Assembly: GCA_002507175.1 (NCBI GenBank)
Contig: DAZE01000020.1
Span: forward strand, 5,872-69,871
Length of the DNA stretch: 64,000 nucleotides
Direction: 5' to 3'
Origin: Euryarchaeota archaeon UBA558
Lineage (GTDB): Archaea > Thermoplasmatota > Poseidoniia > Poseidoniales > Thalassarchaeaceae
Below are positions 7,273-55,852 of this stretch, one piece after another; position 1 is the stretch's first letter, and every line of letters starts with the position of its first letter. The notes under the pieces are model-generated. The model worked only from the letters and a program-made list of their open reading frames with translations, made no database searches and had not been told where the DNA came from. The translations under genes were made by a program, and so were the position numbers.

Positions 7273-7784
7273 TCGTCATTATTTTCATGTACGTGAAGCA
7301 TGACAGGGTTCTCGTCACCCATAACTTCTGTGAAACCTTCCATCGTTCTTTTCCAGAGCTCCTGATGACCACTCCATTCCAACCATCTGTCCACAAAGTC
7401 AGTGTGATTCTTGATATCTTCATCATCCGAGAGCCTTTTGAGGATTTCATTAGTTTGAGCGAGTACCGCACCTACGGGCCCATTGAGCATGTAGGTTGTG
7501 TAGGGATTCCTCTCTTGGATTACCGACTGATGCGCTCTCCAAAGAGAAAAAATCACATCGTAGAGATATCCTATCATTAGCACACAAAATATCACAAATA
7601 ATCCAATAGAGGCTAAACCCCAATAGGTCATTGATATACCTAGGATATCTGTGTTGGGATCGAACCTCCATTTGACATAGGGCCAAGTCAACAGGGTGAG
7701 GGTCGTTACCCAGAATGCCATTGAGATTAGAGTTTGACTTTGTTGAACCCTCCAGTATTCACGCATTACCGTCTTCTTCAGCAT
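7269..7784 (-). CDS. Hypothetical membrane protein (2 predicted TM helices)
   Basis: Hydrophobic segments LISMAFWVTTLTLLTW and WGLASIGLFVIFCVLMIGYLY. 4-nt overlap with the sulfotransferase start suggests co-translation. Confidence 0.55.
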   Translation of the reverse strand: MLKKTVMREYWRVQQSQTLISMAFWVTTLTLLTWPYVKWRFDPNTDILGISMTYWGLASIGLFVIFCVLMIGYLYDVIFSLWRAHQSVIQERNPYTTYMLNGPVGAVLAQTNEILKRLSDDEDIKNHTDFVDRWLEWSGHQELWKRTMEGFTEVMGDENPVMLHVHENNDD

Positions 7785-7826
7785 AACATCATCTCGGAGG
7801 GTGTGTGTATCACTATTGTGACTTAA

Positions 7827-8063
7827 TCAGTCAGATTGCTCCCTGAATGCAGAGATAACACGAGGTTCCGTCGACTCAGAGGGGTCTATCTCTGTTAGAG
7901 AAGAGATAATCACGAATCTTCGAGGCACTCTGTGCTTGCTCCCGAAATTCGAATATACGTACTCTATCGCACCCTCTTTGTCATCAGCGACCACGTCAAT
8001 CGTGTACGGTTGATCTCGGGAGCCACTGCGGAAAGTACCCATTGCTCTGAATGCTTTTACCAT
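7827..8063 (-). CDS. rplX: Ribosomal protein L18Ae/LX
   Basis: 78 aa. MVKAFRAMGTFRSG...AIEYVYSNFGSKHRVPRRFVII resembles archaeal LX (FRV.G.F....EKVYSELGSKHKV pattern). Neighbourhood with pfdA and ftsY is typical for archaea. Confidence 0.75.
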   Translation of the reverse strand: MVKAFRAMGTFRSGSRDQPYTIDVVADDKEGAIEYVYSNFGSKHRVPRRFVIISSLTEIDPSESTEPRVISAFREQSD

Positions 8064-38985: not shown

Positions 38986-39915
38986 ATGATGTCAGATTAC
39001 TTAGTTGAAGACATAGTGAAATGTGATGAATGCAGCAGTAGAAACTTAACTCGTGATGAGACGCGTGGAGAAGTTGTCTGCGACGATTGCGGTTTGGTTC
39101 TGGAAGACAAGGTAATCGACCAAGGTGCAGAATGGCGTGTTTTCAGTCCCGAGCAAGGAGATCAAAGGGCTAGGACCGGAGCACCAATGACGGTCATGTT
39201 GCATGACAAGGGACTATCCACTGACATAGATTGGCAGAACAAAGACTACTCTGGTAAGACAATCTCCAGCAGATACAGATCCCAGTTCTACCGCATGAGA
39301 AAGTGGCAGAAGAGATCCAGGGTCTCGAATGCCACAGAGAGAAACCTCGCGATGGCACTTGCTGAGTTGGATAGGATGGCCAGTCGATTGGACTTACCAA
39401 AAACAATCCGAGAAACTGCTGCTGTGAACTACAAGAAAGCCGTAGAGAAGAGGCTAATTCGAGGCCGTTCGATTGAGGGTGTTGCGGCAGCCTCTCTCTA
39501 TGCAGCATGCCGTCAATGTAACAATCCGCGGACCCTAGACGAAATAGGCGAGGCTAGTAGGACTGGCAGAAAAGAGATCGGACGGACTTACAGGTTCATG
39601 GTCCGAGAACTAAAAATGAAGATTCCTCCTACCAAGCCGGAAGACTACATCCCGAGATTCTGCTCCGGATTGGACTTGGACGCAGAAGTACAATCGAAAG
39701 CGTATGAACTCATCCAAAAAGCGCAAGAGAAAGAACTCACAAGCGGTCGGGGACCGACCGGCATTGCCGCATCGATAATTTACATCTCAAGCGTTTTATG
39801 TGGAAAGAGAAGGACACAGAGAGAGGTCGCTGAGGTAGCTGGGGTCACTGAGGTGACAATTAGAAACCGATACAAGGAGCTCATCCAAAACCTAAACATC
39901 GAATTAGAGATATGA
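38986..39915 (+). CDS. tfb: Transcription initiation factor IIB (TFB)
   Basis: N-terminal zinc ribbon CDECSS...[13 protein letters not shown]-finger/linker region and two cyclin folds ([33 protein letters not shown]). The track ORF starts at TTG 38977. ATG 38986 or 38989 is more likely. Confidence 0.95.
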
Positions 39916-41177
39916 GTGCCGGTGCCAGAATGCGCCTGAGAGACCCAGAGAATGTAATCTATGAGGAAGTAGGAAAGTCAATTGAGGCATCGATAATCCT
40001 TGCATGGTCGACATTTAATATTCCTGATCCCATCTATGAGTTACCTGAATTTCCGGCAATCCGTCCTAATGGGCCCCTAGCCCTGACGCAACAGGCACTC
40101 GGACTCCATTCTGCGGACAAAACGGGATTCAGGTTGAGACTTGAAGAAAGCGTCAGGAACCACTATCGACCCGTGCCCGGCTATTTTGATGAAGAGGAGA
40201 GGCGTACTAATTGGATGGCAAACAATGTAGGTCTACTAACTGATGATGTCTGCACCAAAACAGCATGTGTTTGGTTGGAACAGGCATTGGACGAGGAACA
40301 CCCAGATACAGACAGGTGGTACCTTGGCTATTCCCTGCTTGCAGGTAGGGTATTGAGCGGTTCCGAGTCTGCGTCATTGAGCCAATCAATACCAATCATG
40401 CTCGTTTTCGGCGGTCTTGATAGAGACTACTCGTCAGATGCACCTCATCCATCGGGAGTCAATGCTCTAAATTGCCTTCTCGATGCATCAGAGCAATTTA
40501 GTGACTCACCCTCCTTAGGATCTTGGATTTCCATACTTTCAATGCATCGATCTACATCTAGGATGTTAAGCATATCAGACCGCGCCGCGAGTCGTATAAT
40601 TCGGGAACAAAAAAGGATACCCAGCGGATGCATGGAGGCCTTGATCAATCTGATTTCTCATGACTTAGAGTCTGCTGAGAATGGGCTAAATCGTGTGGTT
40701 CTAGAGGGTAGTGGCTCAGCACGGATGATATTGGCAGGTAATCTCGACTCAATTGCTGGCAGAGATAGGAAACTCGCGTTAGATCTGTACGATGAGCTGT
40801 CTCAGAATTCTGATACTGGTGTCTTACTTGTTCTTTCATCATCGCTTTATTCTCTGTGCTATGACGATCCCGTGGCATTTCGGGTTAGGGCAATGAGACT
40901 GATCGAAACGGAGGATGATAAGGTAATCAGGAGACTGATTGAGTCGGGCTTTAGAGGATATCTCGATAGGGACCCCCAAGATAAATCATCATTGTTGGTG
41001 ATGGCTTGGAAGTATGGTGGCTCTCTATCCAAATCACGATTGAAAGGATTGATTTTCCAACAGAAGCAATCATCGGAGCAAAGCTTTCTCAAGACACTGT
41101 CTGGAATTCAGAAGTTCTCGGAGACTGAGGCTCTTGGCCTGCTTGAGTACATAGAGGGGCGCGAAGCCCCCCGATGA
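39912..41177 (+). CDS. Hypothetical protein translationally coupled to tfb
   Basis: 421-aa ORF whose ATG overlaps the tfb stop (ATGA). Mostly helical-looking sequence. No family recognised. Confidence 0.6.
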
Positions 41178-44100
41178 TCAGGAGCACCCTGTTGTTGAAC
41201 CACAGGCATTGCACTTCAGACAAGTTCCATTTCGCACCATCTGACTGCTCCCACACTCATCGCAGATGTCTCCAGTAAAACCTCTCTCCCTGGCCAATCT
41301 CCTCGTTTTCGTGACCTCATCTTCATCAGTTTCTAGAGTCGAGGAGGTCAGGGTCATTTGCACTTCTCTCTTCTCCCCCTGATGCCTGAGCAGACCATCA
41401 TCTGTAGGGACTGGCCTGCTGATCGAGGTGGTTTCCAGATCCTCTTCAGATACGTGAGCCAAGTCATTCCTGTCTAGATATTGAATCGCGAGTTCTCTGA
41501 AAATGTAGTCTACGATGCTTGTGGACATCTTCACTCTTCCACTACCACCCTGAACCATTCCACTCGGTTCGAATTTTTGGAATGTGAAGGACTTCACGAA
41601 GGCATCTAGCGGCACTCCGTACTGCAAACCAATTGATACGGCAATGGCAAATTGATTCAACATGGACCTCCAGGCTGCGCCCTCCTTCGAGGTCGTTATC
41701 ATAATCTCCCCTAGTCTGCCATCTTCATACTCGCTGGATGTGAGGTAGACTGTGTGTCCTCCAACACGTGATTTTGTGGTTTTTGATGAGCGTACGTCTG
41801 GAAGGGCCTTCCTCGCTGCTATGAAGCTCTGAACAACATTCTCCGCGATAGGCCGAGCTAGATCATCTGGGACAGGTATCGCCTTGACAGCATCCTCGAC
41901 CATGGTCTGTACTGCTCCAGACGAGTCTTCCTCCTCGAGTATGGAGGTATCAACTATCTGACTCATCAAGGGTTGGGACAGTTTACTTCCATCTCGATAG
42001 ACTGCACAGGCTTTGTTCATTGTGCTGTGACTTAGCTCATATGCCTCACGTATATCATCGATTGAAGCTGAGGCGGGCATGTTGATTGTTTTGGAAATCG
42101 CGCCTGAGATGAATGGCTGGGCAGCCGCCATCATTAGAACGTGGGCTTGCCAATCAATGGACCTCGTACCGTGCTTGCCGCATGGTGTGGCGCAATCGAA
42201 TACAGCTAAGTGTTCTTCTTTTAGTCCGGGGGCCCCCTCGATACTCCCATATCCGAAGATTACGTCATTTGCCCGCTCGATGTCTTCGGGAGAAAGGCCG
42301 ATGTGAGCCAGGGTATCGAAGAATACGTTCTGACAATCTTCATCCGACATAGTCAAGACAGTCTTGCAGAAATCATCTCCCAACACCGATGGAGAAAAGG
42401 CCGATCTAATGTCAAAAACATCTGGCATCGAGGACTCTATGTTTGATAGAACCTCGTCTGTGAACCCCTTTTCTTTCAAAATTCGGGGATCGAGGCCGGG
42501 GCTGCCTGAAAGTCGTCCAGTCCCCATGATGTGGTCTACGATCGAAGTGACCTCTGAATCCGTGTAGCCTAATCGCTTCAGTGCACTCGGGACCCCTCTG
42601 TTGATTATTCTGAGCGTCCCACCTCCTGCTAGTTGCTTGTACTGCACCAGTGAGAATTGTGGCTCGACCCCAGTTGTATCAGCAGCCATAACCAGGCCTA
42701 TGGTTCCAGTTGGAGCGATGACGGTGGTCTGAGCATTTCTGTAACCGTATTCCTCCCCCCCTTGCACCGCTCGATCCCAAGCAGATTTTGCGGCATCCAA
42801 GAGATCGCTGGGACATCGTTTTGCGTCTATTCCCATGGGGGTTATGGTTAGACCCTCGTATTCGCTTCCTTTCGCATCATAAGCCGCTCTCCTGTGGTTC
42901 CTCATCACTTTGAGCATGTGATCAGCATTCTCGTGATATTTCGGGAACGGCCCTAACGAACCTGCGAGTTCTGCCGATGTGGCATAGGACTCACCACACA
43001 TGATCGATGATAATGCTCCACACACTGCGTAAGCTCGGTCATCCGCATATGGCAACCCCATGTGCATTAGAAGAGACCCCAAGTTGCAGTACCCGAGACC
43101 TAATGTCCTGTATTCGTATGATTTCCTGGCAATCTCTTCAGAAGGAAACTGAGCCATCAGGACACTGATCTCTAGCGTCATCGTCCATAGCCTCACGCTG
43201 TGTTGGAATGATGGAATGTCGAACTTTTGAGCATCGGTGTCGAAGTAGTGCAACAGGTTGATGCTCGCGAGATTACATGCTGTATCATCTAAAAACATGT
43301 ATTCTGAACATGGGTTTGACCCATTGATTCGTCCACCCTCTGGGCACGTATGCCACTCGTTTATGGTAGTATCAAATTGTACGCCTGGGTCAGCACATGC
43401 CCAAGCAGTGTAGGCAACCTTGTCCCAGAGTTCTTTGGCAGGCATGGACCTACAGGGCGTGGGTTCCCTGCCACTCTCATTGGCGTTCTTCAGCTCAGTT
43501 CTATGATAAAGGTTCCAAGTCCCATCGTTTTCCAGAGCATCCATGAATGAGTTTGGTACACGGACCGAGTTGTTGGAGTTCTGCCCAGAGACGGTGCCAT
43601 AACCTTCACCCTGCCAGTCTGTATCCATCTTATCGAAATGGATCGATTTCCATCCCTGTTCTGCAAGGTCCAAGAATCTCTTGACGTGAGAATTGGGAAC
43701 ATGGTTCTTTATCGCCTTAGCGGCAGCCTTCTTCAATTCTAGATTGTCATTCATGTCAAGCTTGTTACCTTTGCCGTCGAAGCTCCATATTGCATCCATG
43801 ATTGCGTCGGCATGACCCTGTAGCAGATTAGATCCAATAACCAAGGCAGAAACCTTCTCTTCCTCGGATAACTTCCAATCTATGTATTCCTCGATATCGG
43901 GATGGTCCAGATCTAATGTGACCATCTTTGCAGCTCTTCTCGTGGTGCCACCGGATTTTATAGCACCAGCAGCCCTATCTCCAATTTTTAGGAATGAAAT
44001 TAATCCACTTGAGGTGCCACCTCCTGAGAGTGGCTCCCCTGAACCCCTTATGTTTGAGAAGTTTGAACCTGTTCCTGATCCGTATTTGAACAATAGTGCT

Positions 44101-44879
44101 TCCCGGTTCCAGAGCCCCATTATTGAGTCTGTGCCACCAACCAGCGAGTCTGAGACAGATTGAATGAAGCAGGCATGTGGCTGGGGGTGTTCATATGCAT
44201 TCGTAGAGGTCATCAGTTCTCCGGTTGACGGGTCGATGTATCGATGACCCTGGGCAGGTCCCTCTATCCCGTAGGCCCAATGCAATCCTGTGTTGAACCA
44301 TTGAGGGCTGTTTGGCGCTGATCGCTGGCTGGCGATCAAGTAGCACATTTCGTCAAAGTAGGCCCTTGCGTCTGCTTCGGCTGCGAAGTAGCCATGCTTC
44401 CATCCCCAATATGTCCACGTTCCAGCCAAGCGACGGAATAGCTCTCTACCGTGACTTTCACCAATGAACCTTTTTTCGGGATCCAGAGATTGTAGTTTCT
44501 CATGATCTGGTTCGCTCCTCTGTAACCATGTTGGTACTCCCTTCTCTTTCACCCTGCGTAGTATCGCTGGAACCCCAGCTTTTCTGAGGTACTTCTGGGC
44601 AAGCACCTTCCCTGCCACCCCAGAGAAGCCCGAAGGCAATCTGACGTCATCTATCCTGTGTGCGAGAGACCCATCAGCATTCCGAATCTCGACGTCCATC
44701 TCTATCCAATCGAATTGATCGAAGGGGTCTTCCCCGACCGTCGTGAACCGTCTTTCAATGACTAATCCGGTTTCAATCGGCCCTTCTGAATTCTTGCCTC
44801 CTTTTTCAGTTCTGGTCTGCATAGTATCGTCTTCCTTGTCACCCTCCGCCCCGATAACCCAGAGCGAGGGATTCAACAT
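41178..44879 (-). CDS. nrdJ: Adenosylcobalamin-dependent ribonucleotide reductase (class II, NrdJ)
   Basis: TACNLASINL, NPCSEY and C-terminal zinc ribbon CDECGSSQMVRNGTCLKCNACGSTTGCS. Alternative start ATG at 44822. Confidence 0.95.
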   Translation of the reverse strand: MLNPSLWVIGAEGDKEDDTMQTRTEKGGKNSEGPIETGLVIERRFTTVGEDPFDQFDWIEMDVEIRNADGSLAHRIDDVRLPSGFSGVAGKVLAQKYLRKAGVPAILRRVKEKGVPTWLQRSEPDHEKLQSLDPEKRFIGESHGRELFRRLAGTWTYWGWKHGYFAAEADARAYFDEMCYLIASQRSAPNSPQWFNTGLHWAYGIEGPAQGHRYIDPSTGELMTSTNAYEHPQPHACFIQSVSDSLVGGTDSIMGLWNREALLFKYGSGTGSNFSNIRGSGEPLSGGGTSSGLISFLKIGDRAAGAIKSGGTTRRAAKMVTLDLDHPDIEEYIDWKLSEEEKVSALVIGSNLLQGHADAIMDAIWSFDGKGNKLDMNDNLELKKAAAKAIKNHVPNSHVKRFLDLAEQGWKSIHFDKMDTDWQGEGYGTVSGQNSNNSVRVPNSFMDALENDGTWNLYHRTELKNANESGREPTPCRSMPAKELWDKVAYTAWACADPGVQFDTTINEWHTCPEGGRINGSNPCSEYMFLDDTACNLASINLLHYFDTDAQKFDIPSFQHSVRLWTMTLEISVLMAQFPSEEIARKSYEYRTLGLGYCNLGSLLMHMGLPYADDRAYAVCGALSSIMCGESYATSAELAGSLGPFPKYHENADHMLKVMRNHRRAAYDAKGSEYEGLTITPMGIDAKRCPSDLLDAAKSAWDRAVQGGEEYGYRNAQTTVIAPTGTIGLVMAADTTGVEPQFSLVQYKQLAGGGTLRIINRGVPSALKRLGYTDSEVTSIVDHIMGTGRLSGSPGLDPRILKEKGFTDEVLSNIESSMPDVFDIRSAFSPSVLGDDFCKTVLTMSDEDCQNVFFDTLAHIGLSPEDIERANDVIFGYGSIEGAPGLKEEHLAVFDCATPCGKHGTRSIDWQAHVLMMAAAQPFISGAISKTINMPASASIDDIREAYELSHSTMNKACAVYRDGSKLSQPLMSQIVDTSILEEEDSSGAVQTMVEDAVKAIPVPDDLARPIAENVVQSFIAARKALPDVRSSKTTKSRVGGHTVYLTSSEYEDGRLGEIMITTSKEGAAWRSMLNQFAIAVSIGLQYGVPLDAFVKSFTFQKFEPSGMVQGGSGRVKMSTSIVDYIFRELAIQYLDRNDLAHVSEEDLETTSISRPVPTDDGLLRHQGEKREVQMTLTSSTLETDEDEVTKTRRLARERGFTGDICDECGSSQMVRNGTCLKCNACGSTTGCS

Positions 44880-44977
44880 CGACGCTGGAGGGTGTTTAAT
44901 GGTTCTCTAAGGGAAACCTAGGTAGACTACAATTGTGCTGGGTTCTTTTCCAGTAGAAAATCATGTAATTGTAAAAT

Positions 44978-45421
44978 CTAAGCTTTGAAATCCAGCTCCC
45001 ACGTGAGATTCACTCCACCTCGAGTTAACATGATGCCAACTGAACATAGCTTTTCGTGAGATTGATGGATTATGCGATCGAGGAGTGCTACTGGGACATC
45101 CCCCCTTACCACATATACGAAGTGGATCTTCTCGAAGACCCTTGGTGATTCTGAAGCCCTTGACGAGTCTATTTCTATTCGAGCTTCCCTGAGGTTTCCT
45201 CGTCTATCTTTGAGCCCTCCAATCACGTCGATCAATGAACAGGTAGCATGGGCATGCAGAACCATCTCCATTGGACTGGGAGAATCTTGATCATAAATTG
45301 AGAACCGTTTGCCACCTTCAGTTTGTCCATCAAAACCATTGCCATTCCATGTCACCGAGCCTCGCATGGCGTTTCCTGCCAGAGCCCCATCAAGAGGGTT
45401 GGCTTCATGAGGGGGATCCAT
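44978..45421 (-). CDS. OsmC/Ohr family protein
   Basis: [22 protein letters not shown] and the later conserved CSV context. 147 aa. Confidence 0.75.
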
Positions 45422-45444
45422 GTGAGGTTCATAGGGACGGTACC

Positions 45445-46668
45445 ATGGGATCGACGATTCAAAATCTAAACACGGAAATTTCCGTGCCTAACGATCCAAT
45501 AATCAACTATATCGAGGGCGACGGAATCGGGGTTGACATCACTCCGGTTATGATCAAGGTGGTAAACGAGAGTGTCAAAAAGGCCTATTCCGGGGCTAGG
45601 ATCATAACGTGGAATGAAGTTCTCGCAGGGCAGAAAGCATTCGATTTGACCGGCGAGTGGCTGCCGGAGGAAACACTGCAATCGATGAAGCAAGGACTGA
45701 TATCCATCAAAGGCCCACTAACGACGCCAGTAGGCGGGGGCATTAGAAGTCTGAACGTTGCACTAAGACAAAAACTCGACCTTTATGCTTGTGTCAGGCC
45801 AGTCAGATGGTATGTAGGAACCCCAAGTCCTGTAAAGCAGCCTGAGGCAGTTGACATGGTGATCTTCAGGGAGAATAGTGAAGACGTGTACGCAGGGATC
45901 GAGTGGGAGTCCGGGAGTGAGGGTGCCAAGCGAGTCATAGAATTCCTCCAAAAGGAAATGGGGGTGGATAAGATAAGATTCCCAGAAACCTCTGGGATCG
46001 GAATCAAACCCGTTAGTAAAGAAGGCACTGCCCGCATAGTTAGGGCAGCAATCAATCATGCGATAACAGAGGATAAGTCCAGTGTCACACTCGTACACAA
46101 GGGGAACATCATGAAATTCACTGAGGGGGGATTTCGAGATTGGGGCTATCAACTGGCTCGCGAAGAATTCGGAGCCAAAAAAATAGGCGAAGGACCCTGG
46201 TGCGAGCTTGAAAATCCAACTACGGGAAATAAAATAGTAATCAAGGACGTGATTGCTGACGCAATGCTGCAGCAGGTTCTCACCAGGCCCAGGGAATACA
46301 GTGTCCTCGCAACTATGAACCTCAACGGTGATTACATCTCAGACGCATTGGCAGCACAAGTGGGGGGGATAGGGATCGCCCCAGGTGCGAACATCAACTA
46401 TGACACTGGAATAGCAATATTCGAAGCAACTCATGGGACGGCACCAAAATACACCGGCCAAGACAAAGTGAACCCTGGCTCCATCATATTGTCAGCTGAG
46501 ATGATGCTGCGCCACATGGGCTGGATCGAGGCAGCCGATCTCATAGTAAGAGGCGTAGAAGGCGCCATCTCATCAAAGACAGTGACTTATGACTTTGAGA
46601 GGCTTATGCCAGGCGCGAAATTGCTAAGATGTAGTGAGTTTGGGGATGCAATAATCTCTCATATGTGA
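45445..46668 (+). CDS. icd: Isocitrate dehydrogenase (NADP-type, prokaryotic homodimeric)
   Basis: [37 protein letters not shown] and [20 protein letters not shown] 45445 chosen. The upstream part of track ORF 45271 overlaps osmC. Confidence 0.95.
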
Positions 46669-46733
46669 ATATTCATCTTGACATTTGACTAGCGATCTGC
46701 CAGATCACAGAATCGATCATGAAGTGGGACCTT

Positions 46734-46778
46734 GAAAAATAAAAAATGGCGGGAGGGCCCGGTTGGGCCCCCACCGCC
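46734..46778 (-). terminator. GC-rich hairpin plus T-tract downstream of the rhodopsin gene
   Basis: GGCGG-GA-GGGCCC-GGTT-GGGCCC-CCA-CCGCC (46748..46778). On the minus strand it is followed by ATTTTTTATTTTTC. It lies 40 nt after the rhodopsin stop. Confidence 0.5.
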
Positions 46779-46818
46779 TTGTTGCGTATTACTTGGGTAA
46801 TTGACTCAGTTCACTGAA

Positions 46819-47688
46819 TCAAGCCATGGCTGCGGTAGCCTTCTTGGCTCCCATCCATGCTACTACACCGAAACCGATCTTGTTGATCATGTCAGCGATG
46901 TTGTATAGAACGCCCATTAGCTCCTGGTTGCCGTCTAGTAGATTGGCCTCAGGGCTGTACAAGTAGCCGATTGGGTAGATGACCCACCCTACGACTATGA
47001 ACATCCTTAGTGCGTTAAGGCTCCACTCTAGTTCGGCCTTCACCTTGCTGTTGTCGATACCCTTTGGCTCCATCATTCCGAATGGATCTCCGACTGCAAC
47101 AATGATCATTGCCCAGCCCACACCGCTCAATATCAAGCAGATTAGACCAGCGGAGTCACCGAATGTGCCATCCATGAGGCCTGTCTCGCCGGCGAATCCC
47201 CAGCCAATCATCCAAACTGCACCGAAGAAACACACGTTTGCGAATCCTCCGATTCCTGGGATCTTAGCGTCGGTGATAGCATCCTTCCCCACCAAGCTTG
47301 GGAACTTGAGAGCCATCAGCGGGACTGTGATGAGCCAGTCCATGTATCTGTAGTGGACGCTAACTATTCCATCCTCGACATAGGCGCCACGCATGTAGTA
47401 GTAGTGGAACGCTGCGATACCCACAATTAGTGCGGAAATCGTCATTGTTGTCCTGTACTCTTCAGCAACGCTGTTTCGCTCCATGACGAAGAAGATGAAC
47501 GCCGCTCCCATCGAAATGTACCCGACGAAGAAGAGGAAGAAGGTCAATAGAGCCATTCCCTCGTAGTCGTTTGGGTTTGCGTATTCCGATGCGGATGCAG
47601 TGGACAGTCCCAGTACTCCCAGCGTCATCAGGGCGAGTATTGGGGCACTCATTCTCAGGCCATTTTTGTAGGATGGATTAAGATCCAT
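46819..47688 (-). CDS. Proteorhodopsin-family microbial rhodopsin (DTK motif)
   Basis: Helix C RYMDWLITVPLMALKF, FHYYYMRG (PR-type His), helix G YNIADMINKIGFG with the Schiff-base Lys, and seven hydrophobic helices. Confidence 0.95.
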   Translation of the reverse strand: MDLNPSYKNGLRMSAPILALMTLGVLGLSTASASEYANPNDYEGMALLTFFLFFVGYISMGAAFIFFVMERNSVAEEYRTTMTISALIVGIAAFHYYYMRGAYVEDGIVSVHYRYMDWLITVPLMALKFPSLVGKDAITDAKIPGIGGFANVCFFGAVWMIGWGFAGETGLMDGTFGDSAGLICLILSGVGWAMIIVAVGDPFGMMEPKGIDNSKVKAELEWSLNALRMFIVVGWVIYPIGYLYSPEANLLDGNQELMGVLYNIADMINKIGFGVVAWMGAKKATAAMA

Positions 47689-47709
47689 GGGGGAACCCTA
47701 AAATTACCT

Positions 47710-47717
47710 TATATAAA
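47710..47717 (-). promoter_or_regulatory. Candidate TATA box for the rhodopsin gene (near-leaderless transcript)
   Basis: Minus-strand TTTATATA is centred about 26 nt upstream of ATG 47688. Confidence 0.4.
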
Positions 47718-47763
47718 TACCTGTCACTAGTCTAATTTAAACAATACGCTTCATAGGCCCTTT

Positions 47764-48444
47764 TTGCCTCGCTCGGCCATGGACAACCCAAGGGAACTAC
47801 TCCTGTCACTTTCTGATGCTGCCGCTGGAACTGACAATCCACTTTCTTGGTTTGAAGACCTTTATTCCAGAGCAAATAGGGATGATAGCTGGATTCCATG
47901 GTCTGATGGAAATCCCAATCCACTGTTGGTTGACTGGGTGATCGGGCAACCTGCGGGGAAAGCATTAGTTGTTGGCTCAGGACTAGGGGAAGATGCTGCG
48001 TTTCTAGAAAAAAAGGGATGGCAGGTAACGGCTTTCGACATCTCAGAAACTGCGATAAAATGGTCTTCGGACAGGTACAGTCACACGTCTGTTTCTTGGA
48101 TGGTAGCTGACCTGCTGAACCTTCCTCCAGAGTTGTGCGGTGACTTTGATTTGGTACTTGAAGTCCACATCTTACAGGCCATGCCCGTCGAACTAAGGAA
48201 AATAGCCTCACAAAAACTAGCCCCCCTGGTATCAGAAAACGGTTTCTTGGTCTGTATTGGACGCTATGCTACAGAGGACGATCTTACTATCGGGCCACCA
48301 TGGCCATTGAGCTATTCATTTATTGAGTCCATAGGCGCGAGTCTCGGTGAAATGAGCTTGAAGAAAATCAGGCTTGAGTCCGATGATAGTTCCGTTTCCC
48401 GCTACAGGGCTATTTGGAGACGAACGAAAATTAAGAACGATTGA
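47764..48444 (+). CDS. SAM-dependent methyltransferase (TPMT-like class I)
   Basis: ALVVGSGLGEDAAFL (motif I), VTAFDISETAI (acidic post-beta2) and a Trp-rich N-terminus as in thiopurine-MTase-like proteins. Alternative ATG at 47779. Confidence 0.75.
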   Translation: MPRSAMDNPRELLLSLSDAAAGTDNPLSWFEDLYSRANRDDSWIPWSDGNPNPLLVDWVIGQPAGKALVVGSGLGEDAAFLEKKGWQVTAFDISETAIKWSSDRYSHTSVSWMVADLLNLPPELCGDFDLVLEVHILQAMPVELRKIASQKLAPLVSENGFLVCIGRYATEDDLTIGPPWPLSYSFIESIGASLGEMSLKKIRLESDDSSVSRYRAIWRRTKIKND

Positions 48445-51400
48445 TGGACTTGGTAATCTGGTCGGCATTTTCGACCACCACAAATCCGTATTGTTCCTCG
48501 AGCGACCTTCTTATCATACGAAAATCTGAATCTCTCGTGGCCACCAATACAGAACCGACGTCCCGGAGCTTCGGCGATATGCTGCTCGAATAAGAAGCCA
48601 AACTAGCTGCATCGATGATTATCTGTCGATCCCCCTCCTCGGGGTAGATCGCCTTACCATTAATCACGGATCTTGATGGCTCGTCATCTCTTCTTTGCCG
48701 CTTGCTTTCATCTATTTTCGCAAAGATGTTTGAGTGGCTTTCGAGGAAGTTGCTAAGACTACTAATGATCGAATTGTCCTGCTCGAATGCAAGATTGACC
48801 CCACTGAATACCTCAATGACATAATTTCGAATTTCCTCTATCCCTGCATTTTCTATAGATGACCATAAGCCTTGGTCTTGGTATTCGCCGTGAAAAAGCC
48901 TCTTTGAGGTAGAGACGTCGCGTGTTCTATTGGAAAACTCCTTCATAACTGATTCTGGTAAGTAGGTTTTGATCGACCCTGCGTCTTTCTGTCTTCTCAA
49001 TGCCCATTGAAACGCTCTTTCCAGGGACCAATCCAGATTACCCAAACCATAAGGTGAACCCCGCTTGATCAATTCGTCTTTGAATGCGTCAATTAGCAAG
49101 TTGGTGTCTACAATGACAAGCGGTTTCAAACTTGTTATGTTGAAGGTTCTTCGGTCCTTGATAGGTATGGAAGACTCCAATGTGGTGAACATAGACCTTT
49201 GAGATCGCCGAAGTCTTCTGACTCCCTCCTCATCGAAACCCCCGTGATTAATTGCAGATTGGAACATTCTCAATCCAGAAAGTGGCTTTCTCTCAGCCTG
49301 TTCTTGTGCAATTAAGGATATTTCAAGCACGTCCCTCCCCTTCTGCAATTCCTCTTTTAGTCGCCTCTCAAGTCTATCTTCATTCCTGCGCCCTGGCCTA
49401 TCAAGCCTCTTTAATGCCGCCTTTACCCGGCCTTCGAAAGGATCACTCGGAAGTCCTAACTCATCTGGATAAGTCCTCAATCCGTTAATTTCCTGGGTCT
49501 TTTCTTCTTGATCCATATCCGAAGCATATCCCAACACTAGATTGGTCGCAACGTCGCTTCTGCCCTTGTCGTATTCACTACAAACTCTGAGAAATAATTG
49601 AAACCTTCGGGTTATCGCAGCCATCAATTCGGCATTTCGATCAATTAGGTCAACAGCCTGTTTCCATGCTTTGGCGTGTGCGAAGTGAATCAGTGCCATC
49701 CGCCGAAGTTGTGTAGTTCTCTCAAACCTTTGAGGCTCCAATCGCCTCGCAGCCTCTAGGAAACATCTTCCTGCATTCAGATGGTCTCCTTTACCGATCG
49801 AGATAGCGGCTCTCACTATCTGTGAACCAGATGAATCGGGAGCATGTTCTCGATACCATTCTTCCATTACGGGGAGGGCTATATGGTATTCTTCTATCAT
49901 TTCAGAGATTGATATCACCAATTGTATGGATAACCGTCCTTCATTGACAATCGAAACGAGAGTATCGGTCGCGGACCTCTTTTTGTCTTCGTCTTGCATT
50001 TGTAATTCAATTCTCGCTCTGTTCAGCCGTAGCAAGGTGATCAAGGAATCAAAAAGGGAAGACTCAATGTCACCTAGGCTTGAATTATCGGCAGCGGTAA
50101 TCAATTGCTCTATGCTATTTTCCCTCACTATGCCCGTTCCGTCCTCCAATAGGGCCCTTCTAGTTTGATTCAAGGCCTTGATTCCAGTCGTGCCAAGCCT
50201 ATCATGAAGGGCATTGAGGTCATGGGAGAATCCGTTTATTACAGCTAGCAATGCCACAGAAACCTCGGAAAGACAAGGATCCTCAATCCTTTCTAAGGCC
50301 TCTATCGATTTCTTTCTGAGGTCGACCATCCTGTCCATTTTGTTGATCCCGATTCTTGCCGACAAAAGGTGCCATACGAGCAACCCCCGCATTGGGTTTC
50401 TAACAACCGCTTCTCCGACAAGAATTTCGGATAGCAGCTTTATTTCATTTCCTTCGGTTGCTATGTCGGACAAGACTTCCAAATGGCCTGCTTTCAGACC
50501 TCTGGCAATGACCTCTTTAGCCACTATAGTCCTGATTTTTACCGATTTTGAACCATCATATAGTATCTCGATCAACCCTGATGAGTCTATTTTTTTTGCA
50601 CTTTCGGAAGCCATTTCCATCAAATCCTTATCATTCCCAGAAAATCTTCCCACTGCAATTAGCACGTCGATCGGCCACATTGGACGGCCAAGAATGACTT
50701 CTCGAGCCCCATCAAGTCGATTTCCGTCAATCAGTTTCGATGCAATCATGAAACTCAACTTAGCCGGCCAAGCCGAACCGTGACTGTCCAACAAGTCCCC
50801 ACCTCCCGTAAGTGCATCTAGGTCTAGATCTAAATCTGGGAGACTCACGGCCCGCCAGGCCTCAATTATCACAGCGTAGGATAGCCTACTCTCAGGCTCT
50901 TTTTTGATCCACGAGGCCACGTCTTCTTCACTTTTGGAATGTCGGAACGAGTTTAGAGTCAGATACAGTGTTGCTATCTTCTTGAGATCCGGGTCGCTAG
51001 AAGCAGTTCTGAATAACGCTTCGGCGTCCTCGCCAATCGATGCCATCATTATGCCGACAAAGAGGGATCCTACACCCGTATCCGTACCAAAATCTCCAAT
51101 TTGCTTCTTGACCCTGCGCGAGTCCACTTTCGTTGAATACTCACGCCTCAACATGAGAAGTGATTTTCTCTGTTTCTGGGATAGCTTCATTGGAGGATCG
51201 ATTGATAGCCAATCATGCAATGCGGAATGGTCGATTGGATCAAAATTGGCCTTTTCCAACCATGTTTCGATATTCGACTCCGCATTTGAGACTTCCAGTA
51301 CCGGGAACCTACTCAATTCAGCGAAGATCGGAGCCTCTCTGGCCAACCTCTCCCAAGCTGGATGAACACCCTCATCGCACCTCTTTCTGACATCAGAGGC

Positions 51401-51739
51401 GTCTCTTGTGTCTTTCATTACATCGGATTGTAATAATATGTATCTGCAGAGACGAAAAGCAGGGTTGTCTTCTTCCTCGTCTCCAATAATCGCTTCCCTT
51501 GGATCTGAGGTCGATCGGCGAACCCTTCTGCCGGCACGTCGAGAGGATTTCTTGGATTCAGATCCATTATCGTCTTGACGCTCAGGACTGGTTTTCGCCG
51601 CAGCGATCCTCACTAGAGCCCTCCACGATTTCGGCAACTCCTCATATCCAACCGTACGAGAAACCTTCCTCAATCGCGCTCTCTCATCATCACCTGCAGA
51701 GGACAGTGCCTCCAGGCATTCAAGGAGTTGAGATTCCAT
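48431..51739 (-). CDS. Large helical-repeat protein with a C-terminal PIN-like nuclease domain
   Basis: The last 231 aa (48434..49126) carry the four PIN acidic positions in order: LVIVDTNLLID, PESVMKEF, IIIDAASLA, VATRDSDF. The preceding roughly 870 aa are alpha-helical-looking with no recognised motif. Confidence 0.75.
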   Translation of the reverse strand: MESQLLECLEALSSAGDDERARLRKVSRTVGYEELPKSWRALVRIAAAKTSPERQDDNGSESKKSSRRAGRRVRRSTSDPREAIIGDEEEDNPAFRLCRYILLQSDVMKDTRDASDVRKRCDEGVHPAWERLAREAPIFAELSRFPVLEVSNAESNIETWLEKANFDPIDHSALHDWLSIDPPMKLSQKQRKSLLMLRREYSTKVDSRRVKKQIGDFGTDTGVGSLFVGIMMASIGEDAEALFRTASSDPDLKKIATLYLTLNSFRHSKSEEDVASWIKKEPESRLSYAVIIEAWRAVSLPDLDLDLDALTGGGDLLDSHGSAWPAKLSFMIASKLIDGNRLDGAREVILGRPMWPIDVLIAVGRFSGNDKDLMEMASESAKKIDSSGLIEILYDGSKSVKIRTIVAKEVIARGLKAGHLEVLSDIATEGNEIKLLSEILVGEAVVRNPMRGLLVWHLLSARIGINKMDRMVDLRKKSIEALERIEDPCLSEVSVALLAVINGFSHDLNALHDRLGTTGIKALNQTRRALLEDGTGIVRENSIEQLITAADNSSLGDIESSLFDSLITLLRLNRARIELQMQDEDKKRSATDTLVSIVNEGRLSIQLVISISEMIEEYHIALPVMEEWYREHAPDSSGSQIVRAAISIGKGDHLNAGRCFLEAARRLEPQRFERTTQLRRMALIHFAHAKAWKQAVDLIDRNAELMAAITRRFQLFLRVCSEYDKGRSDVATNLVLGYASDMDQEEKTQEINGLRTYPDELGLPSDPFEGRVKAALKRLDRPGRRNEDRLERRLKEELQKGRDVLEISLIAQEQAERKPLSGLRMFQSAINHGGFDEEGVRRLRRSQRSMFTTLESSIPIKDRRTFNITSLKPLVIVDTNLLIDAFKDELIKRGSPYGLGNLDWSLERAFQWALRRQKDAGSIKTYLPESVMKEFSNRTRDVSTSKRLFHGEYQDQGLWSSIENAGIEEIRNYVIEVFSGVNLAFEQDNSIISSLSNFLESHSNIFAKIDESKRQRRDDEPSRSVINGKAIYPEEGDRQIIIDAASLASYSSSISPKLRDVGSVLVATRDSDFRMIRRSLEEQYGFVVVENADQITKSINRS

Positions 51740-51776
51740 GTTGTGATGCTCCGCAAACTTGCTCCGGAGATGAGGC

Positions 51777-52778
51777 CTACATCAACACATCGTCGTCATC
51801 GACAATCCTGGCATTCCACATCTTGAGCCATTCGCTAATGTTTTGCTCGATGTCATGTTGTTCAATTCGCCTCTCAACCGGCAGACCGTTTTCTAGGGGC
51901 TTAATTCTACAGCCACAGGCATCTCGATGTCCACCCCCATCTACATCAAATCTTGTGGCCAATTTCGTGAGGTCGAATAGGCCACCATTCTTATGAAGAA
52001 ACGAGTTTGTGTAAAATGAGGCCGAGACGGGATAATCCAGACCGTTGTCGAAGGAACCATCTAATGAGCCATGTATGATCATGCATGCATCACAATCATC
52101 ACCAGCAAACGCAGTGATTGCGTAGCCGTTTGATCTCATTCCAAGGTCATTCATCTTCACTATTGCCATTCGGTCGATGATCTCAACTCTACCCTCTATC
52201 TCCCTCGCGAGGATCTCATTTTCTGTTTTCCTTGTGGATATCGCATCTGAAACAAGCACATCGCTAACGATGTCAACAATACTGTATCCCTCAGTAAAAA
52301 GCTCCAGGACTCTCAAGGCCACACCCTCTGAGACACCCAAACAACGGCCTATCCAAACCATCGGTTCATCAGACAGATATTCGTTTCTTGTGATATCACC
52401 GCTGTCCAGTTTATCCGTCCAATACAATGCGCTTTCTAGATCACTCAGATCTATTCTATCTTTGAATAAATTAGCCGCAACCCTTGCCGCAGATGGTGAG
52501 GACCCCCAGATTCTATTAGCAGGCCATTCATTTTCCGAAGGCTTATTCGATAGGTGATGATCAATTGAAAGCCCACAACTTGGGTGATAAGGAAGATCAC
52601 AAATAGCAGTTGATGAGTCTATCCAATAGTCGAGCATTCCGTCTTTTAGTGCACCGGGATGTCCAAACTTAACCTTTGCATCTGGAAATGCCCTTAGGAG
52701 GATCGCTCCGCACAAAACTCCGTCGAGATCACCATCTGTGAGGATTTTCTCCACCTTGAGTTCTGATAACCAGCTCAT
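51777..52778 (-). CDS. DHH/DHHA1 family phosphoesterase (nanoRNase/pAp-phosphatase-like)
   Basis: TDGDLDG (motif I), ICDL, SIDHH (DHH motif) and DVDGGGH (DHHA1 GGGH). 333 aa. Confidence 0.8.
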   Translation of the reverse strand: MSWLSELKVEKILTDGDLDGVLCGAILLRAFPDAKVKFGHPGALKDGMLDYWIDSSTAICDLPYHPSCGLSIDHHLSNKPSENEWPANRIWGSSPSAARVAANLFKDRIDLSDLESALYWTDKLDSGDITRNEYLSDEPMVWIGRCLGVSEGVALRVLELFTEGYSIVDIVSDVLVSDAISTRKTENEILAREIEGRVEIIDRMAIVKMNDLGMRSNGYAITAFAGDDCDACMIIHGSLDGSFDNGLDYPVSASFYTNSFLHKNGGLFDLTKLATRFDVDGGGHRDACGCRIKPLENGLPVERRIEQHDIEQNISEWLKMWNARIVDDDDVLM

Positions 52779-52855
52779 GCACTCCGGGCCTCACCATAGG
52801 ATGTATTGGTTCCGCTTCCGAAGAGTTTTATCCTTGAAGAATCATCGGATAAAAC

Positions 52856-53263
52856 ATGGAAACCTCATGCGGTTTTGTTTTACTGAATCACAGCAGCATA
52901 CTTCTGTTGCAATACCCCCAAGGGCACTGGAGCTTTCCCAAGGGGCACGTCGAAGATGGAGAGGACCACCACACAACTGCTAGAAGGGAGTTGCTAGAAG
53001 AGACAGGAATCAGTGAACTGACCATAGTCCCTGGATGGACTAGGCGAACCGAATACACCTATTCCCGCCGTGGCTCACCCATGAAGAAGCAAGTGTTCTG
53101 GTATCTTGCAACAACTGAAGAGTTCATGGTCAAGTTGTCACATGAGCACACAAACTTCCTCTGGCTGGATCTAAACAGGGCAAAGGAACAGCTCACATTC
53201 GATCAAGAGAAGGTCATATTGAGTGAAGCAGGCCAATTTGTCGCTGAGATTGGTTTGATGTGA
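52856..53263 (+). CDS. Nudix hydrolase (Ap4A hydrolase / RppH-like size class)
   Basis: Nudix box GHWSFPKGHVEDGEDHHTTARRELLEETGI. 135 aa. TTTTATCC about 25 nt upstream of the ATG. Confidence 0.9.
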   Translation: METSCGFVLLNHSSILLLQYPQGHWSFPKGHVEDGEDHHTTARRELLEETGISELTIVPGWTRRTEYTYSRRGSPMKKQVFWYLATTEEFMVKLSHEHTNFLWLDLNRAKEQLTFDQEKVILSEAGQFVAEIGLM

Positions 53264-53265
53264 GC

Positions 53266-53898
53266 TCAAGCATTCCGCTTTCCAAGAGGAACCCAGAGCG
53301 TTTCATCTTCTCCTTGTTTCAGTGTGAACCACCTAGCCAAAACAAAAAGCCAATCTGAGAGTCTGTTTAGATACATAACCACTGTATCGCGCAGGCCATT
53401 GGGATCCTCTTGGATTATGGAACAGGCATATCTTTCTGCTCTTCTTACGATAGTACGTGAAAGGTGACATGCGGATACAACAGCAGTTCCTGTGGGAAGT
53501 ATGAAGCTCTCGAGAGGCTCCAGTTCAACAAGCATTTCGTCCATTTCCCGCAAGAGCAATTCACAGGCCTCGTCAGTCAACAAAGCCATGGCCTTTGGAA
53601 GCGAATCTGGTGGGCATGAGCATTCGCCCCCTAGGTCGAAGAGCTCTTGTTGCACCCTTCCCAGCATAGCCTCACCACGATCTCTGGATGTCAGGAATGT
53701 GGTGAGTGGGCCCCCATCTGGAGCCTCAGTTGGCGCCCTCATTAATTCACTTCGAATCATCCCAATGAATGAGTTTGCCTCATCGATAGTTCCGTACAAT
53801 TCAACCCTTGGATTTGATTTGGATACTCGAGAACCATCAAGAAGATGTGTCTCTCCACCATCTCCTCCGCCCGTATGCACTCTGTTAATTCTGACCAT
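53266..53898 (-). CDS. pduO: ATP:cob(I)alamin adenosyltransferase, PduO type
   Basis: HTGGGDGGETHLLDGSRVSKSNPRVELYGTIDEANSFIG matches the PduO-type N-terminal signature. Confidence 0.9.
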   Translation of the reverse strand: MVRINRVHTGGGDGGETHLLDGSRVSKSNPRVELYGTIDEANSFIGMIRSELMRAPTEAPDGGPLTTFLTSRDRGEAMLGRVQQELFDLGGECSCPPDSLPKAMALLTDEACELLLREMDEMLVELEPLESFILPTGTAVVSACHLSRTIVRRAERYACSIIQEDPNGLRDTVVMYLNRLSDWLFVLARWFTLKQGEDETLWVPLGKRNA

Positions 53899-53917
53899 GA
53901 GTTCTGGGAAATGCTAC

Positions 53918-54646
53918 TCACATATCATCAGTCGGTTTGGACCATGAGGAATTTTTCAAACTATGAAGAGCATTATCAACAGCCTCGTTCCATGCTGAAT
54001 CAACAGCACCCCATCCCCCGAGCTCGTTCAGCTTGTCCTCATTCTGATCCGCGAGATCGGTCCGACCGAGATGTCTGTAGATTTTTGTGATTGCGGCATA
54101 ACTCATCGCTCCAAGCCAATCTTCCTCTGCGTCCCAAGAATTTTCAAAGTACGCCAATGCGCCAGAAGGACCCTCTAGAAGCCCCCTTTGGATCTGTCTT
54201 AGCCCAGCTTTGGACCACGCTATACCCGGCACCCCGATTATTAGACCCTTGAAAATGAGATAGATTTCCATTAGAATCAAAACCGAAGCCAGTATAAACG
54301 AAGAGAGATGTTCTTGCATACCCCCATTGTCCCAATAACCTACCATGAGCGAAATACTACCCACAGTCAAAAGGCAGCCGCCAAATGGACCCACAATGAA
54401 ATCTTTTGAGGTTCTAGACATATCCCATGATCCGCGGAGTGTTCCATACGCCCCGAGCACAAGGGCGATTATCGCGGGCACCTCTGGACTTGTATCCCTG
54501 GGCCCCTGCTCAGAAATTATCAAGAAGGCACCAGAAATCAATACAAAGTAAGAAAACCGTCTGGAAATCTCGGGAAACGGCTGGTAACCGGACAGGTAAA
54601 AACAAGCACCTCCCAACGCGATCAAAAAGGCTATCCATGCGATCAT
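53918..54646 (-). CDS. Hypothetical polytopic membrane protein
   Basis: 242 aa with about 6 hydrophobic helices. The start overlaps the upstream ORF stop. Confidence 0.55.
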   Translation of the reverse strand: MIAWIAFLIALGGACFYLSGYQPFPEISRRFSYFVLISGAFLIISEQGPRDTSPEVPAIIALVLGAYGTLRGSWDMSRTSKDFIVGPFGGCLLTVGSISLMVGYWDNGGMQEHLSSFILASVLILMEIYLIFKGLIIGVPGIAWSKAGLRQIQRGLLEGPSGALAYFENSWDAEEDWLGAMSYAAITKIYRHLGRTDLADQNEDKLNELGGWGAVDSAWNEAVDNALHSLKNSSWSKPTDDM

Positions 54647-54969
54647 ACACTATCCCCTTTCCATCCCGGCATCCAGAAACGATCGTTATCCAGCCATTCT
54701 GACCACTCTCTGTCAGTCGCCCTCAACAACCTCAGAGCCCGCCTGTCCAGGCCTTGTTTGAGAGCATCATCTACCTCCTCCCTTTTCCATGAATCCTCCC
54801 ATTCTATCTGGAGCTCCCTCACAAACCGCTGCCCTTCAGGCCGATTGTCAAAGTGCCGCTCACAGATTTCCCTAAGCTCCTGCAGCCAAACTCTGGTACC
54901 AAGCATCTGGGGGTCATTATCCATGTGGCCAGTTCCCTTTTTGCGAAACAGCCAATCCCAGAACATCAC
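54643..54969 (-). CDS. Hypothetical Trp/charged-rich small protein
   Basis: 108-aa ORF with a 4-nt overlap with the downstream membrane protein gene. Confidence 0.5.
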   Translation of the reverse strand: MMFWDWLFRKKGTGHMDNDPQMLGTRVWLQELREICERHFDNRPEGQRFVRELQIEWEDSWKREEVDDALKQGLDRRALRLLRATDREWSEWLDNDRFWMPGWKGDSV

Positions 54970-55027
54970 GCCACCGTATCACGCGTCTTGACAAACGGCT
55001 ATAGTCACTTGTTGAAGTATTTGTGTT

Positions 55028-55462
55028 ATGGGAAGGGTAGTTGTTCACCTTCACGGACGGGCAAAAGACGCTTCTTTCAGGGCTTCCATATCAGATTATG
55101 CGAACAGGCTGTCAACCTCAGGTGTCACACTTGTGGAGCACAGGAATCAAACAGAACCAGATGTTTACCTAAGGGAAATAGCTGATAAAAATCCCGACCA
55201 CAACATCATACTTCTTGAAGAGAATGGCGAACAATTGGATAGTCTTCAGTACGCTGAGAAGCTCAAGCAGTGGTCATTAGATCGCTGTGATACCCACCTG
55301 GTAGTGGGACCACCCGGTGGTTTTGGACCATCCAGCAATCCACATACATCGATTTCCCTTGGTATGATTACTTTGCCACATGAGCTTGCAGCGGTGGTAC
55401 TCTTGGAACAGTTATATCGGGCGTCAACAATAAACAAAGGGTTGCCTTATCATCGAAGGTGA
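55028..55462 (+). CDS. rlmH: 23S rRNA (pseudouridine-N3)-methyltransferase RlmH (SPOUT)
   Basis: C-terminal HLVVGPPGGF...SLGMITLPHELAAVVLLEQLYRASTINKGLPYHR matches the RlmH signature (IGG..G...LS...T..H...R..L.EQ.YRA....G.PYH). Confidence 0.85.
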   Translation: MGRVVVHLHGRAKDASFRASISDYANRLSTSGVTLVEHRNQTEPDVYLREIADKNPDHNIILLEENGEQLDSLQYAEKLKQWSLDRCDTHLVVGPPGGFGPSSNPHTSISLGMITLPHELAAVVLLEQLYRASTINKGLPYHRR

Positions 55463-55474
55463 CTACGTATCGGA

Positions 55475-55852
55475 TCATAGGTTCCCTTCATCTTCGCTGA
55501 CGCTGGCTATCTCGTTGTTTTCATTCACGATGACGATCTTGGGTTTATGCTCATGGACAGAATCGACATCCACGTGCAGAAAAGAAAGAATGATTACCAG
55601 ATCACCTGGTTTCACAAGGTGTGCAGCGGCCCCGTTTATGCATATCTCCCGAGATCCCCGGGGCGCCTTGATCGCGTAAGTCTCGAGCCTTTCCCCATTA
55701 GTCACATCCAATATCGCGACTTTTTCCCATTCGATGATGTCAGCGGCCTCCATCAGGTCTACGTCTATCGATACGGAACCAACATAATTCAAATCAGCTT
55801 GGGTCACTGTTGCTCGATGAATTTTGCCGTTCAGTAGCACTTTCGACGCCAT
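55475..55852 (-). CDS. panD: Aspartate 1-decarboxylase, pyruvoyl-dependent
   Basis: KIHRATVTQADLNYVGSVSID contains the Gly-Ser self-cleavage site. 125 aa. Confidence 0.92.
   Translation of the reverse strand: MASKVLLNGKIHRATVTQADLNYVGSVSIDVDLMEAADIIEWEKVAILDVTNGERLETYAIKAPRGSREICINGAAAHLVKPGDLVIILSFLHVDVDSVHEHKPKIVIVNENNEIASVSEDEGNL

Follow-up and report, generated by a model that had tools for sequence, protein, structure and literature searches.

An archaeal clade B (DTK/Met) rhodopsin, most likely an outward proton pump, in a Marine Group II archaeon

The gene at 46819-47688 of the window, by which we mean the whole 64,000-nucleotide stretch of Euryarchaeota archaeon UBA558 DNA that was analysed, codes for a DTK-type rhodopsin that belongs to Archaea clade B (ACB). 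Its host is a Marine Group II (Poseidoniales) archaeon, probably of the family Thalassarchaeaceae (MGIIb), and we consider it very probable that its product is a green-absorbing outward H+ pump in which a Lys assists reprotonation. The DTK/Met feature itself is not new: the very pair of residues that first drew attention here is given by Rinke 2019, Tully 2019 and the later ACB papers. Rhodopsins of this type have been in the Marine Group II literature since 2012-2019 and are among the most abundant archaeal light-harvesting proteins of the surface ocean. The observations that follow concern the residues, the descent, the genomic setting and the likely function of this member of the clade, and the manner in which its chromosomal slot has been filled.

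The rhodopsin gene and all of its features given below lie on the minus strand. Its open reading frame is uninterrupted over 289 codons, from the ATG at 47686-47688 to the TGA at 46819-46821, and the product (289 aa including a signal peptide) matched Pfam Bac_rhodopsin PF01036 at 4.8e-31. It has a 7-TM fold, a Schiff-base Lys in helix G and a helix-C RYxDW motif, and is by these marks a type 1 rhodopsin. The first-pass annotation had quoted three strings, RYMDWLITVPLMALKF, FHYYYMRG and ADMINK, and all of them were present in the reading frame. The helix C motif RYMDWLITVPLMALKF occupies 47302-47349 (residues 114-129, codons verified), with Asp117 at 47338-47340, Thr121 at 47326-47328, Met125 at 47314-47316 and Lys128 at 47305-47307. 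His95, within FHYYYMRG, lies at 47404-47406; it is the equivalent of proteorhodopsin (PR) His75, the partner of the counter-ion Asp, and does not vary in the family. In helix G the residues D266-M-I-N-K270 of ADMINK (46879-46893) supply the second counter-ion Asp and the Schiff-base Lys, matching BR D212 and K216.

The position of the Lys was the point on which the original assignment depended, and three independent alignments, to Exiguobacterium sibiricum rhodopsin (ESR), to PR and to BR, all placed it on the proton-donor site. In a gap-free phmmer alignment to ESR (PDB 4HYJ, E 1.1e-34) Lys128 fell on ESR Lys96, with ...LMALKFP opposite ...LLLVKFP, and in a MAFFT alignment it fell on E108 of blue proteorhodopsin. 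An L-INS-i alignment anchored on bacteriorhodopsin (BR), whose residue numbering was checked, carried BR D85/T89/L93/D96/W138/D212/K216 onto D117/T121/M125/K128/L185/D266/K270. The Asp and Thr said to be kept at PR positions 97 and 101 were confirmed as D117 and T121 by the alignments to ESR, PR and BR; the Met said to stand at position 105 proved to be Met125, by the BR-anchored alignment and a check of its codon; and the equivalents claimed for His75, Asp227 and Lys231 were found as His95, Asp266 and Lys270. Since the pump residues all map onto BR D85/T89/D96/D212/K216, the protein is predicted, as the first reading had it, to belong to the retinal-binding, ion-pump-type rhodopsins. H95, D117, T121, M125, K128, L185, D266 and K270 were invariant in a 48-sequence alignment of the family. 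Of these, Leu185 in helix E (47134-47136) stands at the BR W138 position of the BR-anchored alignment, which we take to be the xanthorhodopsin G156 "fenestration" site of Luecke 2008; given this equivalence, drawn from the literature, Leu185 is the Leu found at the fenestration site of the ACB type.

In an AlphaFold2 model (pLDDT 81.9) seven TM helices, with helix C at residues 111-133, came after an N-terminal helix of low confidence; the model superimposed on PR, ESR and xanthorhodopsin structures with target-normalised TM scores of 0.80-0.87. The signal-like N-terminus that had been noticed from the start was borne out as a hydrophobic stretch in residues 1-33 that ends in ASA. This putative leader, MDLNPSYKNGLRMSAPILALMTLGVLGLSTASA (47590-47688), would be cut after ASA; its region contains a hydrophobic segment at residues 10-36 and, in the low-confidence part of the model, an N-terminal helix at residues 7-26 ahead of the 7-TM core. 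Directly after the Lys donor comes the cytoplasmic C-D loop, PSLVGKDAITDAK, which is near-invariant across the whole ACB family; it spans 47284-47301 (residues 130-135) and 47266-47283 (residues 136-141), where the model has a small beta-hairpin.

The descent of the gene was examined in a 91-row ML tree of the order's rhodopsins, representatives of 50%-identity clusters and three PDB sequences. The query fell in an all-DTK clade of 16 rows (SH-aLRT 99), to which both families of the order contribute. ESR and numerous further DTK clusters lie in the same half of the tree as this clade, and a split with support 99 divides that half from the PR half, which contains blue PR (4KLY), PsPR (9R22) and the DTE/Gln archaeal (MGII clade-A) proteins. 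ESR groups with other clusters rather than as the sister of ACB, and the deep branches of the tree are poorly resolved. At the end of helix C the query has the Lys and KFPSLVG, to be set beside the FPLLxG-type end of the ESR-like DTK pumps (PMC10519204). The question left standing by the first-pass annotation, whether the protein matches one of the published archaeal clades, is hereby answered: the tree, run with PR, ESR and the MGII types, placed it in Archaea clade B. No paper was found in the literature search for an "Archaea clade C".

That the protein is instead a true PR-clade proteorhodopsin, in which the donor Glu108 was recently and atypically exchanged for Lys, would agree with its 33-36% identity and common fold with blue and green PR, and with the His75 and RYxDWxxTVPL framework that it has in common with PR. 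We nevertheless regard that origin as highly improbable, as it is contradicted by the well-supported split from the half holding 4KLY, 9R22 and the clade-A proteins, by the invariance of the Lys throughout the clade, and by the DTK state of many neighbouring 50%-identity clusters, ESR included. From the split we concluded that the protein is not a proteorhodopsin deprived of its Glu, but a member of a distinct family whose ancestral residue at this site is Lys. The original statement that Glu108 is replaced by Lys was thus correct as to the residue at the 108 site and incorrect as to an exchange, and with its Lys at 108 and its place outside the PR clade the protein is not a member of the PR family in the strict sense.

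The DTK/Met type proved to be common. A large protein search returned 1328 homologues, the top ones 99, 91, 88 and 83% identical to the query, followed by a dense mass at 61-75% whose named members were assigned to Candidatus Thalassarchaeaceae, Poseidonia sp. or "Euryarchaeota archaeon", the last being also the name of the 88%-identical cluster. The 90%-identity cluster that contains the query has 118 members, and one member sequence occurs on 217 contigs (NCBI, JGI, ENA, Logan, Tara). Of 142 proteins (the 120 listed among the 1328 homologues, with 22 cluster members added), 138 had the pattern RYMDW[IL][IV]TVPLMALKF, and so did every one of 30 relatives from the order's genomes; FHYYYM accompanied the DTK/Met helix C in both sets. 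Of 301 genomes sampled from the order to which the window belongs, 190 had a rhodopsin of the A or B type. Identity to the query was bimodal across the order, with about 127 genomes (~42% of the 301) matching at 61-100% and the rest of the 190 at 33-39%. Three kinds of rhodopsin could be distinguished there: DTK/Met with His75, which is the kind of the query; DTE/Gln with His75; and, less often, DTT/Met or DTC/Met, in which Gln takes the place of His75. The description of the gene as an atypical variant was therefore not upheld, as a large clade already in the literature, found in ~42% of the sampled genomes of the order, has DTK with Met without variation. Selection on the gene is strongly purifying, with dN/dS of 0.027 against the congener G009 and 0.079 against the congener G207; these values, and a helix-C motif conserved in hundreds of homologues, take the feature far beyond chance.

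The name Clade-B was used by Pinhassi 2016 and by Tully 2019. Rinke 2019 (PMC6461757) described two Poseidoniales rhodopsin clades, "DP" with Gln and a Glu donor and "SP" with Met and a Lys donor, and named ESR as the precedent. Tully 2019 (PMC6336850) scored Archaea Clade-A and Clade-B on positions 97, 105 and 108, with Clade-B having D97, K108 and M105, and the MGII "SP"/Clade-B rhodopsins are predicted H+ pumps in both reports (PMC6461757; PMC6336850). Clade-B genes were among the most transcribed genes in Thalassarchaeaceae MAGs (Damashek et al. 2021, PMC9723583). In a 2025 Nature Microbiology paper the "ACB rhodopsins" are called proton-pumping, and the site of xanthorhodopsin G156 is described as occupied in most of them by Leu, which is unusual; one of them, ACB-G35, was isolated as a retinal-containing pigment and did not bind carotenoids (PMC12137139). 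In the literature searched we found no pH-change assay, transport or photocycle report for any ACB member, pumping being asserted in PMC12137139 and predicted elsewhere. The present gene has little weight as a discovery, and belongs to a family seemingly without a published photocycle or transport study of its Lys donor.

The rhodopsin gene stands alone between two housekeeping genes, the isocitrate dehydrogenase gene (icd), which is convergent with it, and a divergent TPMT-like methyltransferase gene. Upstream of the ATG, and centred ~25 nt from it, is a TATA-box-like sequence, TTTATATA (47710-47717), read from the sequence as a candidate promoter element; its spacing suggests a leaderless or near-leaderless archaeal transcript. 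On the other side, 41 nt past the stop codon, is a terminator-like element at 46735-46778, consisting of a 31-nt GC-rich hairpin, GGCGGTGGGGGCCCAACCGGGCCCTCCCGCC, followed by ATTTTTTATTTTT. The RNA of 46725-46820 on this strand folded at -39.1 kcal/mol (z = -4.97 versus shuffles), and a simple consensus terminator scan did not list the hairpin and T-tract at 46735-46778. The hairpin and T-tract lie between the convergent rhodopsin and icd genes, and the hairpin might terminate both.

The closest congener, G287, has a DTE/Gln (clade-A) rhodopsin at exactly this place, with icd on one side and the methyltransferase on the other. Gene order is the same in the two genomes, running NrdJ, a 147-aa ORF, icd, rhodopsin, methyltransferase and a 1102-aa PIN protein, and the flanking genes are 85-92% identical. 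When the window was compared by blastn with the G287 locus (L035, G287:C9), the flanks aligned over 39595-46798 at 89.7% and over 47606-55652 at 87.7%, and between them only a 108-nt helix-C stretch aligned, at 71%. The segment at 46799-47605, which covers the coding sequence of the mature opsin and 20 nt of 3' UTR, has no continuous nucleotide homology to G287, where its counterpart is L035 positions 7199-7951. Homology resumes at 47606, so that the first 27 leader codons, the TATA box and the terminator, whose hairpin falls within the common flank, are shared by both. The G287 clade-A leader, MDISPSYKRSLKMSAPLLGVFTLGILGLTTVSA, matches MDLNPSYKNGLRMSAPILALMTLGVLGLSTASA of the query, with the mature parts only ~36% identical. 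The leader of the query is kept within its genus; the clade-A congeners G095 and G271 have a different one, and in genera g4 and g5 the start of the leader likewise varies with the genus of the host rather than with the clade of the rhodopsin. Given that DTK is the state of three other congeners in which the leader of the query occurs, the overwritten gene is probably that of G287.

The rhodopsin slot may accordingly be a defined exchange cassette, in which clade-A and clade-B mature opsins are swapped by recombination with the 5' junction in the signal-peptide coding part and the 3' junction just before the terminator hairpin; in our judgement the case for and against such a cassette is evenly balanced. 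If it is true, promoter, leader peptide and terminator would remain those of the host, and only colour and donor chemistry would change. Replacement by "overwrite" was described at the level of gene neighbourhoods by Rinke 2019, and the clade-A gene found at precisely the same place in a 90%-identical congener provides a clear case of it in nature. A junction inside the leader is a finer and possibly unreported detail, and the exact placement of the junctions is the only mildly new point here. Against G009 and G207, the rhodopsin was the most conserved gene of the neighbourhood (86% and 83% nucleotide identity, with flanks at 66-82%). As NrdJ is nearly as conserved and dS is ~0.9, this comparison gave no evidence for a recent transfer of the rhodopsin among these genomes.

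These features of the locus also bear on whether the protein is a photosensor instead of an energy-conserving pump. A non-carboxylate at the donor site is a classic trait of sensory rhodopsins, and the sister DTT/DTC clade of the same order looks sensor-like and has a dedicated partner gene. In the query genome, however, the rhodopsin has no partner or transducer gene beside it; both neighbours, icd and the methyltransferase, are on the opposite strand and the gene has a TATA box and terminator of its own; it also retains the Asp/His counter-ion pair and is the sole rhodopsin of the genome (1.44 Mb, 89% complete). The in-place swap with a canonical DTE pump in a congener implies that the two are functionally equivalent, and a Lys donor is found in proteins that do pump, namely ESR and HeimdallR1 (PMC12137139). 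Taken together, these points make a sensory rhodopsin very unlikely, and an outward proton pump the preferred reading. Besides the sensory role, a different ion specificity and a pseudogene had been entertained and were likewise set aside: the protein has none of the motifs NDQ, NTQ and TSA, the frame is undisrupted, and the gene lacks a partner.

The DTT/DTC rhodopsins occur as a second rhodopsin in some genomes of the order's other family. They have Met105 and a Gln at the His75 site, and form a long-branch sister to ACB. Their loci are L073 (G014:C3, 5083-7121), L074 (G190:C34, 4712-6756) and L075 (G192:C46, 5032-6909). In G014 and G190 the rhodopsin gene is directly preceded by a gene for a conserved ~340-aa protein without a Pfam match, 71% identical between the two; in G192 a similar ~340-aa-like protein is encoded upstream of the rhodopsin, and the stretch between them is masked.

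The supply of retinal was addressed by the search of the genome for blh and crt genes that had been proposed at the outset, and its two parts came out differently. No blh was found in the 89%-complete genome with PF15461 and TIGR03753, a result that is weak for PF15461 alone, as this model matched no control genome. The lycopene-cyclase domain PF18916 likewise had no match in this genome, and PF05834 matches that were considered as lycopene cyclases turned out to be geranylgeranyl reductases. The crt part gave a positive result: a crtI-family phytoene desaturase gene adjoins a phytoene/squalene-synthase-like gene, outside the window (G000, contig C6:24832-27456). Two more SQS_PSY genes lie elsewhere in the genome, also outside the window (G000, contig C13:148923-150896). 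From the missing blh and PF18916 matches, and the reassignment of the PF05834 ones, it could be argued that the host is unable to make retinal and that the apoprotein, although made, is largely non-functional here. We find this scarcely credible, given the strong purifying selection on every pump residue, the presence of the crtI-family and synthase-like pair, the incompleteness of the genome, and the ability of organisms that lack blh to form retinal all the same or to scavenge it (PMC7734400). Where MGII without blh obtain their retinal is an already recognised puzzle, and most MGIIb are without an annotated beta-carotene 15,15'-monooxygenase (Tully 2019, PMC6336850).

We propose, by analogy with relatives and with the literature, that the protein functions as an outward proton pump as follows. 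It would be made with a Sec-type leader, be inserted as a 7-TM bundle, and bind all-trans retinal at Lys270. Photoisomerisation would then move the Schiff-base proton to the Asp117/His95 complex, and a proton from the cytoplasmic side would then return to the Schiff base, assisted by Lys128 as it is by Lys96 in ESR. Met125, at the PR-105 site, would presumably tune absorption to green, and the resulting proton-motive force could sustain a photoheterotrophic lifestyle.

Among known systems the closest are the other ACB rhodopsins (ACB-G35, "SP", Clade-B), which are of the same clade and host order and have the same helix C (DTK, Met105), the same equivalents of His75, Asp227 and Lys231, a signal peptide and the fenestration Leu. 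The query genome, in which no blh was found, is in this respect like most MGIIb (PMC6336850). Nothing in the query differs in kind from these proteins; together with three congeners it forms a sub-branch with a genus-specific leader and 61-75% identity to the rest of ACB. ESR, a characterised DTK pump with Lys96 as donor, was the best match of solved structure and is an apt mechanistic precedent, the role in which it had first been cited. The His, Asp and Thr are conserved between the two, an FPxLxG-like motif follows the Lys in both, and both lie in the same half of the tree. In contrast, identity is only ~36%; ESR has Leu at the 105 site and Tyr at the BR W138 site where the query has Met and Leu, there is no signal peptide in its aligned chain, its host is bacterial and non-marine, and in the tree it is not the sister of ACB. 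The PRs proper (clade A DTE/Gln105; 4KLY, 4JQ6, 2L6X) have the same fold (TM 0.80-0.87), His75 and the same presumed function, and in G287 it is an MGII clade-A protein that occupies the chromosomal slot of the query; they are, however, 33-39% identical to it and form a separate well-supported clade with a Glu donor and Gln as tuning residue. HeimdallR1 (PDB 9JTQ; match at 5.3e-27), an Asgard DTK-type protein with K92 as putative donor, resembles the query in being a marine archaeal outward proton pump with a Lys donor (PMC12137139). It differs in having Gly at the fenestration site and in binding xanthophyll antennas, whereas ACB-G35 bound no carotenoids, and it represents a separate family.
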